Shown piece by piece: positions 1,428 to 6,580 of a stretch of 10,459 nt of DNA; position 1 is the first letter of the stretch; each line of letters starts with the position of its first letter. The notes beneath the pieces were generated by a model that did not search any database, was not told the DNA's origin, and saw only the letters and a program-made list of their open reading frames with translations. Location of the stretch: assembly GCA_044356215.1 (NCBI GenBank), contig JBIKWQ010000097.1, positions 1 through 10,459 of the forward strand. Reading direction: 5' to 3'. The DNA is from Bdellovibrionota bacterium (GTDB lineage Bacteria > Bdellovibrionota_C > UBA2361 > OMII01). The translations under genes and the position numbers were made by a program.

Positions 1428-3047
1428 TTAGTCGCGGGTGCTTTGGAAGTTTTTGGCGTCCTCCTTGAGGTAGCCAGCGAGAATAATATGGCCATTTTCG
1501 CGCGCATGGTCTTCGGCTCGCTTGTTACATCGGTCTTTCAATTTTGGATTCGCGTTAAATTCTCTAAGAACCTCAATGAAATACTCATTGCCCTTTTCCG
1601 CGGCGACCATCAGTAATGTCTTGTTACCATCAAAGCGATCGTTAATCCTGAACTTCTTGTTTGTCGTTAGAAAGTCCAAGATTTTTTTGATTCTACTAGT
1701 TACCTGAGCCCCTTCTTTTCGATAATCGTCGGTGGTAATTTTGCTAACGGCCGCAATCAAAAATTTACGAATGTTCTGAGGAGTAAGCGCTTTAGTTACC
1801 TTATCTGTCGGCATAAGGTTTTTGTTGTTTAGGAGAAGAGAGATTAACTCCTCAAAACGCTCCGGTTTGAAAAGCTCAGGATCGATTTTCTCCGCGACTC
1901 TATTTAAATCAGACTTAGCTCGAATGGGTTTAGCTCTTCTTTTTGACGGGGTAGGTACCGTGTTGCCCTCCTCCTTTAAGCGCTCACGAAGTCGCGTGAG
2001 ACCGCTATTTGTAACATCAGCTAGTTCGAAAAAATCAGCGGTACTTATGACCGCTTGTCGCGGATCTTTTACCCACTTTATTTCCGAACTGTTGAGCAAG
2101 ATATTGCTCATTTCGTCGAGAAAATCGCGCATGCTATTAATATCAATACACTGCTTGGCGAGACTTATTTGATCCTCGGTTAGCCCAGCATTCCCTCCAA
2201 AAGAAAGGGCTTCCACAGGATGGCGTTCGAGGATAAATTTTAAGAGCTCTTCATTCCTGGCATTTAGTGCTAATTTACCGAAGCCATATGAATAATACTT
2301 AGATCCATATTTCTCCCATACAGGCTGTCTAATATCTCCAGGGCGTATACCAAAAATATCGAGCTTTTCATCCAGCGGCTTTATGAGCCTAAGAGCTAGG
2401 CGCCTGTTCGCGATGGCGGTCATTAAGTTATCAACTGAGGCTAGAAGAGCGGGTGATGTACGGCCCCAGATAAATGCATCCCCTTTAGCGTGATTAAAAG
2501 ATAGCATTTCATCCACAAGGCTCGAAACGATTCGCAGGTCTGGCTCAGGAAAGGTCAGAGCTATTAAGTTAAGTTTGTTCGCCTTTGCATAGAACGAGTT
2601 CAGGGCATTTGGTACTTCATAAGCAAGACTCGAATAGAGGTCGGCGCCCTCGCCCTTCTTTTTAGTTCTTTCAGACCAGATGTTAACCAATTTCGGATCA
2701 CAACAGGCGGTCAAGAGATCGCTCGGAGTGATATTGTTATGCTCAAATTTGCGAACGTTTAAACACAGAGTCGAGATGAGAGCCGCGATGAGTTCCTTGA
2801 TTTTGTTACCTTTTTCTTCTGAACTAGGGAAGTAACTTCGCCAGACACTCTCCACTAGCTTTCTCGTAAGGTTTTGATCCTTGAAGTCCTCTTTCAGCAA
2901 GTCAGTGGCAATTTCAAAAGGATCTACTTTTGGAGATGTCGCTTGATTGGCCCATCCCGAGGAGGACGCTCCGTCAGCTTGAGAAAAACAAAGAGCTGGG
3001 GTACTTGATTGATGCGCAATGCCAGTGAACGCCATAACTGTAGACAA
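1428..3047 (-). CDS. Hypothetical protein with C-terminal ankyrin repeats
   Basis: 539-aa ORF. The C-terminus DGNKTLLMVAAEKGNEYFIEVLREFNANPKLKDRCNKRAEDHARENGHIILAGYL fits about two ankyrin repeats (nt 1467-1646). The N-terminal ~460 aa are unrecognised. Start uncertain (TTG 3047 or ATG 3035). Confidence 0.8.
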   Translation of the reverse strand: MSTVMAFTGIAHQSSTPALCFSQADGASSSGWANQATSPKVDPFEIATDLLKEDFKDQNLTRKLVESVWRSYFPSSEEKGNKIKELIAALISTLCLNVRKFEHNNITPSDLLTACCDPKLVNIWSERTKKKGEGADLYSSLAYEVPNALNSFYAKANKLNLIALTFPEPDLRIVSSLVDEMLSFNHAKGDAFIWGRTSPALLASVDNLMTAIANRRLALRLIKPLDEKLDIFGIRPGDIRQPVWEKYGSKYYSYGFGKLALNARNEELLKFILERHPVEALSFGGNAGLTEDQISLAKQCIDINSMRDFLDEMSNILLNSSEIKWVKDPRQAVISTADFFELADVTNSGLTRLRERLKEEGNTVPTPSKRRAKPIRAKSDLNRVAEKIDPELFKPERFEELISLLLNNKNLMPTDKVTKALTPQNIRKFLIAAVSKITTDDYRKEGAQVTSRIKKILDFLTTNKKFRINDRFDGNKTLLMVAAEKGNEYFIEVLREFNANPKLKDRCNKRAEDHARENGHIILAGYLKEDAKNFQSTRD

Positions 3048-3948: not shown

Positions 3949-4560
3949 CTACTTCTTACGTAGACCCATCTTCTCTAAACGTTGAGCTAGGTAAGGGATC
4001 TTATCGTATCCAACGATGCGCTCACCGCTCTCGAATACGAATGTTGGGGTATCAAACACACCTAGCTTGCGACCACGCTTGTAAATTCCCTTAACGCGCT
4101 CGCGAGTGTCAGAGGAAGAGACCTTGCTTAGGAAGTCACCGAGGTCGATATCGAGGTCATCGCACAACTCGTTCATGAACGCGTCCTGATTTGGATCCTC
4201 GCCTAATCCCCACCACTTGTTAAATACCTTGATGTTGTACTCTAGAAGTACGCCTAAATCGTTAGCGATCAGAGCGCCGCGTGTTATACGACCTGGGTCG
4301 AACTCAACTTCCGGCCAGTTCTCTGGGTAGGTGATAGCTAAGCCGCGATCGCTGGCGATACGACGGGTGTCCTCAAATAGGTAAGAAAGCTTGTCAGGAA
4401 GGATCCCCTGTTGTGGAACTGGGTTACCTGAGGCGCGCGCCGAGAAAGGCTGCCAAAGGAGCTCTACGTTGTATTTCTCCTGGATGTCGTAAATCGGGTC
4501 CATGGCCAAATACGAGTAGGGACTCTGGAATGAATAGAAGACTTCAATTTTATCTGTCAT
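3949..4560 (-). CDS. DsbA-family / 2-hydroxychromene-2-carboxylate isomerase (glutathione S-transferase kappa-like) protein
   Basis: N-terminal IEVFYSFQSPYSY (Ser-type rather than CxxC) and C-terminal GVFDTPTFV cis-Pro loop; 203 aa. Lies 20 bp upstream of the rsmE ATG, so the two are likely co-transcribed. Confidence 0.85.
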   Translation of the reverse strand: MTDKIEVFYSFQSPYSYLAMDPIYDIQEKYNVELLWQPFSARASGNPVPQQGILPDKLSYLFEDTRRIASDRGLAITYPENWPEVEFDPGRITRGALIANDLGVLLEYNIKVFNKWWGLGEDPNQDAFMNELCDDLDIDLGDFLSKVSSSDTRERVKGIYKRGRKLGVFDTPTFVFESGERIVGYDKIPYLAQRLEKMGLRKK

Positions 4561-4609
4561 AAGGGCACTTTAAAGTAGAAAGTTAAATAGCTTCTCACTG
4601 AGTGGTGGC

Positions 4610-4630
4610 GATCATCGGTCACCGAGGATC
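4610..4630. promoter_or_regulatory. 21-bp near-perfect palindrome (candidate operator)
   Basis: GATC-A-TCGGT-C-ACCGA-G-GATC: 9 of 10 arm positions are complementary. It lies in a divergent intergenic region, directly abutting the candidate ncRNA. Confidence 0.4.
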
Positions 4631-4866
4631 AAGCCAGATTAGGTTAGCGGGGGATGAGAGGTCTTTTAAAAATCTCGCGCCCGTAGCCCAACTTATACCC
4701 GTGAAGCAGCCTTCACGGGGGTACTTACGTATAACTTTTGTGGTAGCGGACCTTCTGCCAAGGCGAGAGTACGCTACCCCCAAGAGGCGCGTAAGTAATA
4801 TCTGCCAGCCCAAGGTGTGGTATGAACCATCCAACTCTTAAAGGTAAAGTATTCCGGATCTGGCTT
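4631..4866 (+). ncRNA. Candidate large structured ncRNA (possible raiA-motif-like RNA or cis-regulatory leader)
   Basis: Closing stem AAGCCAGATT (4631-4640)/GATCTGGCTT (4857-4866) encloses four stems: 4642-4651/4680-4688; perfect CCCGTGAAG/CTTCACGGG (4698-4719); a long rod 4722-4797; and 4814-4832. Several G-U pairs form only on the + strand. Confidence 0.65.
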
Positions 4867-5034
4867 ATTTGCAAGATTAAGTCCTACAAACTTCGGAAAA
4901 ACGGGTCCGTATTAACCCCGGGCGGTCTTCCGGCTAGTGATTGCAGTCTTTGTTGTTAGAGCTTATTTACCTTTCCGGTTAAAATTTGCTAGTGTCCTAG
5001 CGGAGTTGCGACGATAATGATTGGTCTTAATCGC

Positions 5035-5955
5035 ATGCGAATAGGTGAATTACTAAATACAGGTAACGGGGGCAATGGATCTAAGATAGGCCTCGATAGA
5101 CCTATTCTCTGCCTAGAGATTAACCCGCCGCGTGGAACCGAGATTGAGCCGGTGCTAGGCCGATATGCTGATCTTAAGGGGGTCGACCTCGTGAATGTAA
5201 CCGACTCAGCGTTAGCCAAGATGAAGCTGTCGGGAGTTGTATTCGCTGCACTATTTAAACAACGGTACGGGATTGAGCCGGTTGTTAACCTCTCTTGTAG
5301 AGATCGGAATGTGATAGCTCTCCAGGCTGACCTCTTGGGAGCTTGGTCACTCGGTATAAGATCGATTGTGGCTTTAACAGGAGACGCGGTTACAGTCGGT
5401 GATCTTCCAGAGGCAAAGGGAGTTTTTGAGGTTAACTCGGTCGGTCTTTTAAATATTATCTCAACCCTAAACTCCGGAAAGGATCTGGCTGGAGTAGATT
5501 TGAAAGGTGGCACGAAGTACGTGCCAGGAGTCGTTGTTAATCCAAACGCTAAGAACAGGGACGCCGAAATCCGTCGTTTGCAACGTAAGCGAGATGCTGG
5601 CGGTTCATACGCGTTGAGTCAGCCGGTTTTCGATGTAGAGCACGCTGTGTCTTTCTTTGAGGCGGCCGCTTCTACAGGTATCGATAATTTTGTCGGGTTG
5701 TTACCGTTTAAGAGCGCTAAGTCTTTTGAGGCGGTAGCTAAGGTTCCTGGGATAAAGGTGCCGGAAAAGGTGTTAGAGAAGGTTAGATCCTTAAGTGAGG
5801 GTGACGTTCAGAGCTATTCGATTGATATAGCCTGCGAGATAGCGGAAAAAACGAAGCCGTATGTGCGAGGTTTTCACGTTGTCAGTGGTGGTTCTCCGCT
5901 AGCGGCGATAGAGTTAACAAATCGACTCGCTTCGTGGATAGCCGCGAGGTGGTAG
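5035..5955 (+). CDS. metF: Methylenetetrahydrofolate reductase family protein (stand-alone, like the C-terminal domain of YitJ)
   Basis: EINPPRG, VNVTD, LSCRDRNVIALQADLLGA, ALTGD, GVFEVNS, SQPVFD, GFHV motifs of the FAD-linked MTHFR barrel. Start is ATG 5035 or 5017. Confidence 0.88.
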   Translation: MRIGELLNTGNGGNGSKIGLDRPILCLEINPPRGTEIEPVLGRYADLKGVDLVNVTDSALAKMKLSGVVFAALFKQRYGIEPVVNLSCRDRNVIALQADLLGAWSLGIRSIVALTGDAVTVGDLPEAKGVFEVNSVGLLNIISTLNSGKDLAGVDLKGGTKYVPGVVVNPNAKNRDAEIRRLQRKRDAGGSYALSQPVFDVEHAVSFFEAAASTGIDNFVGLLPFKSAKSFEAVAKVPGIKVPEKVLEKVRSLSEGDVQSYSIDIACEIAEKTKPYVRGFHVVSGGSPLAAIELTNRLASWIAARW

Positions 5956-5995
5956 AGGTTTATGTTGTTTCGGATTTAATTGAGAGGATAGAGAG

Positions 5996-6580
5996 ATGAA
6001 GCGTAGAGAGGAGATGACATTCCTAGAGAGGATCTACGTTGTAGAGATCGCCAAAGGATTGCGAATTACCTTTGGTAAGCTAATCGGTAATCTGTGGTTG
6101 CACATATTACATGCTCTTGGGGTGAAGACCTCATTGGCCGCCGCCGCTTCAATCCAATACCCTAATGCCCGTCGGCCGTATCCCCCACGGTACCGTGGAC
6201 GCCACAGATTGACCCTTTATCCAAGCGGCGATGTTAAGTGCACCTCGTGTTTTCTCTGCGCTACGGCGTGTCCGGCTAAGTGCATATACATCGAGGCTTC
6301 AGAGCATGAGGACCCAGAGGTAGAGAAATTTCCGAAGCGCTACGAGATCGATACGCTTTTATGTATCTACTGTGGATACTGTGTTGAGGCGTGTCCTGTA
6401 GACGCAATCCGAATGGATACGGGTCTACACCCAGAGGTTTACCCAGCGGATCCGCGTCTCTTTATTGAGGATAAGGAGACACTAATGGAGCGCTCTCGTG
6501 TTCTAGAGGATCTCGGACCAGAGCGTCTCTACGATATGCATATGAAGAAGATGCAAGAGCTCGAAAAGGTAATACTCTAA
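5996..6580 (+). CDS. nuoI: NADH-quinone oxidoreductase subunit I (NuoI)-like 2x[4Fe-4S] protein
   Basis: IQYP...YRGRHRL, two ferredoxin motifs CTSCFLCATACP and CIYCGYCVEACPVDAI, and YEID; purine-rich RBS upstream. Confidence 0.9.
   Translation: MKRREEMTFLERIYVVEIAKGLRITFGKLIGNLWLHILHALGVKTSLAAAASIQYPNARRPYPPRYRGRHRLTLYPSGDVKCTSCFLCATACPAKCIYIEASEHEDPEVEKFPKRYEIDTLLCIYCGYCVEACPVDAIRMDTGLHPEVYPADPRLFIEDKETLMERSRVLEDLGPERLYDMHMKKMQELEKVIL

Follow-up and report, generated by a model that had tools for sequence, protein, structure and literature searches.

The window analysed here, a stretch of DNA of 10,459 nt, contains an intergenic region between two divergent genes. To the left of it, on the minus strand, lies a gene for a DsbA-like thioredoxin-fold protein of the HCCA isomerase/kappa-GST-like type (3949–4560; Pfam PF01323, E 2.1e-25). 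Among solved structures the protein comes closest to 2-hydroxychromene-2-carboxylate isomerases (E 3.2e-08), with kappa-class glutathione transferases also near. To the right, the plus strand carries an MTHFR gene (5017–5955), followed rightward by one for a NuoI-like 4Fe-4S protein. This arrangement, with the dsbA-like gene and rsmE leading away to the left and the MTHFR gene to the right, is kept in all loci examined.

The DsbA-like protein is 83–96% identical across the genus. The third codon positions of its gene are only 0.40–0.55 identical, and unconstrained sites must therefore be near saturation. That the protein is conserved although third positions are near saturation points to exceptionally strong purifying selection, and not to recent transfer. 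The adjacent RsmE is just 40–72% identical over the same genus.

On the plus-strand side, the top-scoring model for the MTHFR-like gene was that of a bifunctional homocysteine methyltransferase/MTHFR, whose reductase half it matched with 245 bits against a cut-off of 453 bits. It is paired with the gene for the NuoI-like two-cluster ferredoxin (together 5017–6580, plus strand) in every relative whose sequence reaches the second gene. In relatives, similarity to the MTHFR ORF starts only at residue ~22–28 (5017–5100, plus strand), so the ATG at 5017 may be a wrong start. Shortly 5′ of this gene, the window and clade C (L006–L009) share a second conserved block, TTTGCTA.G...GG.AGTTGCG (~4985–5012, plus strand), which resembles the TTTGCAAGG block at the −35 hexamer described below and could be a shared protein site or an MTHFR leader. 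Elsewhere in the window, a 539-aa ORF (1428–3047, minus strand) has no Pfam family and matches only, faintly and at its C-terminus, a sigma-70-family model (E 3.7e-4).

A first-pass annotation, made from the letters alone, had placed an unannotated structured RNA of about 236 nt on the plus strand of this intergenic region (4631–4866), with a 10-bp closing helix enclosing four stems (P2 to P5), and had considered it unlike tRNA and tmRNA. No Rfam 15 family matched either strand of the whole window at the gathering threshold, and the sole match at E values up to 10 within 4500–5100 was noise, a mammalian lncRNA model at 4963–5052 (E 9.2). ARAGORN likewise returned no tRNA or tmRNA genes in the window.

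Extent and distribution of the conserved core

The part of the region that is conserved among relatives comprises ~4780–4838 together with two hexamers, TAnnnT (4846–4851) and TTGCAA (4869–4874). BLAST against 40 relatives matched eight of 24 same-genus genomes, and only over ~4744–4884. A scan with a 20-nt pattern, covering one genome per prokaryote species, recovered 16 stretches, 11 of which have the same flanks. The five without these flanks are chance matches, near the number estimated for a pattern of such size.

We built a covariance model on the core (R1), which matched 34 of the 36 family genomes, each of them once, namely 33 of the 34 other genomes of the genus and the window's own, but not the one genome of the sister genus. 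Over wider ranges it matched 35 of 91 genomes of the order and 35 of 124 of the class, and the single extra match beyond the family (30 bits) spans the promoter part only. In the genus genome that gave no match (83% complete), the DsbA-like protein was also unmatched. A further 13 full core matches came from 19 metagenome loci encoding the DsbA-like protein. The conserved core is restricted to one genus.

The 236 nt of the first-pass annotation are present once in the window's own 3.24-Mb assembly. We also considered a MITE or other dispersed repeat and rejected it, given one copy in each of the 34 matched genomes and a terminal inverted repeat that is not conserved; many dispersed copies, which the first pass had named as the sign of a MITE, were not seen. 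A small ORF within the core was likewise excluded, by reading frames that are not conserved and by a 1-nt indel between clades. To this extent the first-pass reading is supported, in that the locus holds a non-coding element which is conserved and single-copy.

Within the core block, which spans ~58 columns, mean pairwise identity is 0.73 (minimum 0.55), an aptamer-like conserved domain in the generic sense used for riboswitches. Across the genus, strong purifying selection acts on the first ~60–70 nt of the predicted minus-strand RNA, and the remaining leader is free to change in both sequence and length. Leaders measure 174–294 nt within the genus, with 385 nt in L065 and about 280 nt in the window, and between 110 and 320 variable nt separate the conserved domain from the start codon.

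Promoter-like hexamers and the predicted minus-strand leader

We read the two conserved hexamers as a putative promoter on the minus strand, directed toward the dsbA-like gene. The −35-like hexamer TTGCAA (4869–4874), which is its own reverse complement, occurs in all 34 tabulated loci because it served as the search anchor; it is also found in the sister genus G041 and in L062, which belongs to another family, and a conserved block adjoins it on its upstream side. The −10-like hexamer (4846–4851, TACTTT in the window) is invariant at positions 1, 2 and 6 in the 34 loci, where it takes the forms TACCTT (30), TAACTT (2), TACTTT (1) and TACCGT (1). Between the two lies a spacer (4852–4868) that measures 17 nt in each of the 34 loci, fixed in length but variable in sequence, which differs between clades and holds the 3′ arm of the first-pass closing helix (4857–4866). 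A sigma-70-type geometry, with a spacing of 16–18 nt and conserved T1, A2 and T6, was found in 34 of 34 loci and likewise in G041. A consensus promoter scan of 4450–5100 did not list the TTGCAA/TACTTT pair, which has 7 of 12 matches (hand count) against a threshold of 9 of 12. As a genome-wide promoter type the TTGCAA/TAnnnT pattern is not recurrent (three sites vs one in the control).

The same promoter-like pair also occurs where the leader is absent, 30 nt 5′ of the gene start in L062 and 40 nt 5′ of it in L081, a close relative. The L081 metagenome contig (1074–1160) retains the −35 hexamer, the spacer and the final ~28 nt before the start codon around a leader of just 40 nt, and its DsbA-like gene is 92% identical over the 76 residues that the contig contains. 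This natural variant without the conserved RNA core shows that the leader is not needed for the gene to be present, a point against our preferred reading. In the sister genus G041 (L085, 900–1199), TTGCAA-N17-TACCTT stands before a leader of ~260 nt with an unrelated sequence, and the DsbA-like gene behind that leader is 87% identical to the one in the window. Long leaders seem to be a trait of the family, and the conserved core seems specific to the genus.

Downstream of the −10 hexamer, identity is 0.29 in the first eight alignment columns, 0.73 in the core that follows and 0.28 in everything after it. From this onset of conservation, 7–8 nt past the −10 hexamer, we infer a transcription start at 4837–4841 on the minus strand. 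Parts of the window between 4000 and 5600 are contained in 24 RNA runs, and we examined the contigs of four of them. Contigs from three RNA libraries span 4568–4819, 4497–4827 and 4611–4819, and the second of these bridges the dsbA-like start codon at 4560 and the intergenic region. As these contigs carry no strand information and RNA libraries can include DNA, they speak for presence and for continuity with the dsbA-like gene only, and their depth is unable to rank expression. The three contigs end within 8 nt of each other, without loose ends, at positions (4819, 4827 and 4819, unstranded) that fall 12–20 nt short of the predicted start; their shared end points, though weakly, to a boundary close to that start. 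The lack of contig cover over 4864–5457 in the four RNA libraries is not evidence for strand or for expression of MTHFR.

Folding of the region and the strand of the 5′ domain

In the window itself, all stems of the first-pass annotation were found where it had placed them. The plus strand of 4631–4866 folds at −91 kcal/mol (z −4.68), with none of 200 dinucleotide shuffles equally stable, and both its MFE and its centroid structure give the 10-bp closing helix, P2, P3 and P4. The minus strand of the same segment reaches −79.4 kcal/mol (z −2.21; 4 of 200 shuffles equally stable). Over 4558–4839, the z-scores are −4.21 for the plus and −2.16 for the minus strand, which counts against a minus-strand reading. 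By these z-scores and shuffles, which concern this genome only, the fold is therefore beyond chance and better on the plus strand, as the first pass had expected of its folding check.

Relatives present a different picture. L063 is a strain with a DsbA-like protein identical to that of the window, and its leader is identical across the first 124 nt from the right-hand end. The nine substitutions and three indel columns that separate the two all lie in 4599–4722, on the P2/P3 side, and most of them disrupt pairing in P2 or next to it. In the closing helix, L063 carries a 3′-arm change that is not compensated and weakens the duplex from −17.8 to −11.1 kcal/mol. Among 43 sequences, complementarity of the closing-helix arms is −11.04 kcal/mol for native and −11.39 kcal/mol for clade-swapped pairs, and only four of the 43 fall in the best 10% of the swap test. 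P2 (4643–4690), P3 (4698–4719) and the closing 5′ arm (4631–4640) all lie in the variable remainder of the leader (4561–4721, minus strand), where pairwise identity is about 0.28. The five-helix unit of 236 nt thus did not survive the comparison, its closing helix, P2 and P3 all being unconserved in relatives, whereas P4 and P5 fall within or adjoin the conserved part. The stems are real in this genome, but among relatives conservation of the region extends over no more than ~60 bases. A strong fold in a single genome (z −4.7) therefore calls for caution, this one being mostly lineage-specific and partly made of promoter spacer.

The P4 rod (4722–4797) forms on either strand in the window. Its 5′ half, as read on the minus strand, overlaps the hairpin II described below, and its distal half is variable. 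In the swap test the native rod had a small advantage of −1.6 to −1.9 kcal/mol, absent in clades D–F, and its plus-strand consensus in one clade (RNAalifold) came to −4.75 kcal/mol with a covariation term of +1.58.

Over larger segments the folding signal was weak, with a slight lean to the plus strand. For whole leaders, mean z is −1.45 on the plus and −1.03 on the minus strand, lower on the plus strand in 23 of 32 but weak on both. The rod segment has a mean z of −1.18 (plus) vs −0.69 (minus) and falls below −2 in 12 of 43 sequences on the plus strand vs 3 of 43 on the minus strand. With RNAalifold, neither strand yields more than a small consensus energy (−7.46, −6.96 and −4.75 kcal/mol). 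In L059, L055 and L044, six to eight pairs are G-U on the plus strand only. The first pass had argued for the plus strand from G-U pairs that would be A-C mismatches on the other. This held in the window but not across relatives, where strand-neutral counts from ungapped best duplexes were about even (83 G-U vs 91 A-C, and 61 vs 51 in a second count). Such strand-neutral duplexes are often spurious, so we drew no conclusion on strand from them, and a single-column covariation listing was too noisy for use.

The conserved domain itself gave a clearer signal. Read on the minus strand, it begins with a 5′-proximal hairpin, P1 (UGGU/ACCA, 4818–4829), which corresponds to P5 of the first-pass annotation and starts about 10 nt past the predicted start. 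P1 is paired in 98.8% of 160 cells, and one sequence shows a double change from U-A to G-C; the helix is symmetrical and is therefore uninformative on strand. It is followed by a nearly invariant linker (4794–4817) with columns at least 90% conserved, which contains GGGCUGSCAG (G-box 1), and then by hairpin II (4770–4793), with ten pairs and one bulge. Here the C-rich box ACGCGCCU, in the form A(C/U/A)GCGCCU, pairs with a downstream G-rich stretch (GGG.GCGU) in every sequence. Hairpin II forms in the minus-strand MFE structure of the local 40 nt, and for these 40 nt the minus strand is the more stable in 40 of 44 sequences (−13.53 vs −9.67 kcal/mol) and, on average, in all nine clades.

We aligned all 44 sequences to a second model comprising P1 and hairpin II (model R2, alignment A8). 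Over the 14 modelled pairs, four in P1 and ten in hairpin II, 91.9% of 541 cells pair, compared with 88.8 ± 0.6% when shuffled. Five pairs, four of them in hairpin II, are changed on both sides, a count reached in 4 of 500 shuffles. The covariation score is 0.138, compared with 0.093 after shuffling; none of the 500 shuffles attained it, and slid controls did not go beyond 0.075. On the minus strand hairpin II has 97 G-U vs 3 A-C cells, and it is therefore canonical in 89.0% of cells on this strand and in 64.3% on the plus strand. Because A8 was fitted to a minus-strand model it leans to that strand; the ratio is nonetheless large. Most core columns never vary, and the RNAalifold consensus is only about −7 kcal/mol. 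On the minus strand RNAalifold also pairs 4805–4811 with 4785–4790, an alternative to hairpin II such that the two exclude each other; it has few variants, and in these the pairing is kept only on the minus strand.

Collecting homologues and examining covariation, as the first-pass annotation had proposed, thus bore out conservation for ~60 bases but not for the outer helices, and the best covarying helix reads on the minus strand. The plus-strand assignment of the first pass was not supported: the 3′ arm of the closing helix falls in the variable spacer of the promoter-like pair, hairpin II is canonical far more often on the minus strand, and an RNA-library contig joins the region to the dsbA-like coding sequence.

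Interpretation and relation to known elements

The conserved element is most likely not a plus-strand RNA of 236 nt. We think it probable that the dsbA-like mRNA has a long untranslated leader on the minus strand, and that the conserved element is a genus-specific promoter together with the 5′ domain of this leader, with a putative function. Transcription would run leftward from about 4839. The 5′ domain would consist of the hairpin at 4818–4829, the invariant G-rich linker at 4794–4817 and the C-rich box, which could pair either downstream (hairpin II, 4770–4793) or upstream (4785–4790 with 4805–4811). This domain may act in cis as a control element: the invariant single-stranded box would be recognised by a trans-acting factor, be it a protein, a small ligand or an RNA, which would select one pairing, and the choice of pairing, together with the 5′ hairpin, might set the stability or translatability of the mRNA. 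What the analysis establishes is the conservation, the geometry of the promoter, the single copy, the restriction to one genus and the strand bias of hairpin II, whereas the transcription start, a transcript from the minus strand and any function are predicted.

Searches for the more usual devices came up empty. If the start site were sequestered, leaders should be complementary to the start region, but mean z was +0.32 in the core and +0.10 in the remaining leader sequence. Terminator-like hairpins occur in just 13 of 44 leaders, at inconsistent positions, and among these leaders we found no expression platform based on a terminator or on start-site sequestering. A long-range partner for the invariant linker gave a mean z of −0.37, with 3 of 43 sequences below −1.64, which is not significant; by eye, similar-looking partners of the linker recur. 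Since start sequestering, a terminator and a long-range partner were not found, and 110–320 variable nt lie between the domain and the start codon, we favour a cis-acting 5′ domain recognised in trans.

One alternative follows the first-pass annotation in taking the element for a structured RNA on the plus strand, which could be a small RNA of its own or a long leader or riboswitch of MTHFR. In its favour are the window fold (z −4.68 vs −2.21), a mean z over relatives that is lower on the plus strand, long plus-strand rods with six to eight G-U pairs in L059, L055 and L044, and a position 5′ of MTHFR in every locus that reaches this gene. We nevertheless consider it improbable. Such an RNA would have a variable 5′ side without a conserved promoter-like feature, no terminator-like hairpin at its 3′ side in a plus-strand scan, and a 3′ closing arm that shows no covariation and coincides with the variable spacer separating the two conserved hexamers. 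Moreover, hairpin II is canonical in just 64.3% of plus-strand cells, the rod consensus in one clade is only −4.75 kcal/mol with a positive covariation term, 130–400 variable nt separate the element from the MTHFR start, and one contig connects it to the dsbA-like coding sequence instead.

Cut off or ended early, the minus-strand 5′ domain might also become a 5′-UTR-derived small RNA that acts in trans rather than in cis. Conservation limited to the first ~60–120 nt, a long, variable and dispensable spacer to the start codon, and the failure to find a cis expression platform would all suit such an RNA, for which the invariant single-stranded box is a possible seed region. A conserved terminator or processing signature was not found, however, and one contig runs unbroken from 4497 to 4827, so we regard this reading too as a doubtful one. 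The least probable explanation, with a very small chance of being right, is conservation at the level of DNA, in which operator or nucleoprotein sites would regulate the divergent dsbA-like and MTHFR genes and RNA structure would be irrelevant. Although weak thermodynamic and RNAalifold support for structure and the conserved block on the upstream flank of the −35 hexamer are consistent with it, ~60 nearly invariant nt are long for operators, two-sided changes and a 97:3 ratio of G-U to A-C in hairpin II are unexpected for DNA, and the block begins right past the predicted transcription start.

If the element is instead read, as we prefer, as the 5′ domain of a dsbA-like leader, three kinds of known element invite comparison. 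Long 5′ UTRs with a 5′-terminal stem-loop, such as the E. coli ompA leader, shield mRNA from decay. Like them, the element is a long leader before a single gene, with a small hairpin ~10 nt from the predicted 5′ end and no ligand-type expression platform found; unlike them, it has an invariant stretch of ~45 nt behind the hairpin, and the comparison concerns layout. That stretch behind P1 suggests specific recognition and not end protection alone. With the riboswitches and cis-acting leaders of Rfam the element shares a 5′ leader whose 5′ domain is conserved and whose remainder varies, and one C-rich box with two mutually exclusive pairings, but it matches no family, lacks a terminator or start-site platform and is confined to one genus. 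MITE- or REP-type repeats are likewise stem-rich intergenic DNA, and compared with L062 and L081 the leader resembles an insertion between promoter and start codon; in contrast to such repeats, however, the element is single-copy, always at the same locus, and its closing helix (the terminal inverted repeat) is unconserved.

A literature search of titles and abstract openings turned up nothing on this element. We conclude that a new member, restricted to one genus, can be added to the conserved 5′ leader elements, a broad class, and that its strand and boundaries are unlike those first proposed. A bolder possibility, which we hold to be unlikely although worth stating, is that the ~70-nt minus-strand domain represents a new class of two-state sensor RNA. 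Its invariant C-box would switch between the upstream and the downstream G-box on binding of a ligand or protein, and this partner would have a connection with the thiol/glutathione chemistry of the enzyme encoded behind it, the kappa-GST/HCCA-isomerase-like one. The domain would need neither a classical terminator nor a start-site platform and could work via mRNA decay, for example.

If our reading is right, this would be an uncatalogued family of cis-acting leader RNAs from an uncultured genus, preceding an unusually conserved thioredoxin-fold enzyme. Natural comparisons are on hand in the leaderless L081 and L062 and in the sister genus G041 with its different leader. As a compact (~70 nt) and strongly constrained RNA, it would offer a test of how a gene may be controlled without the usual terminator or ribosome-site switch.
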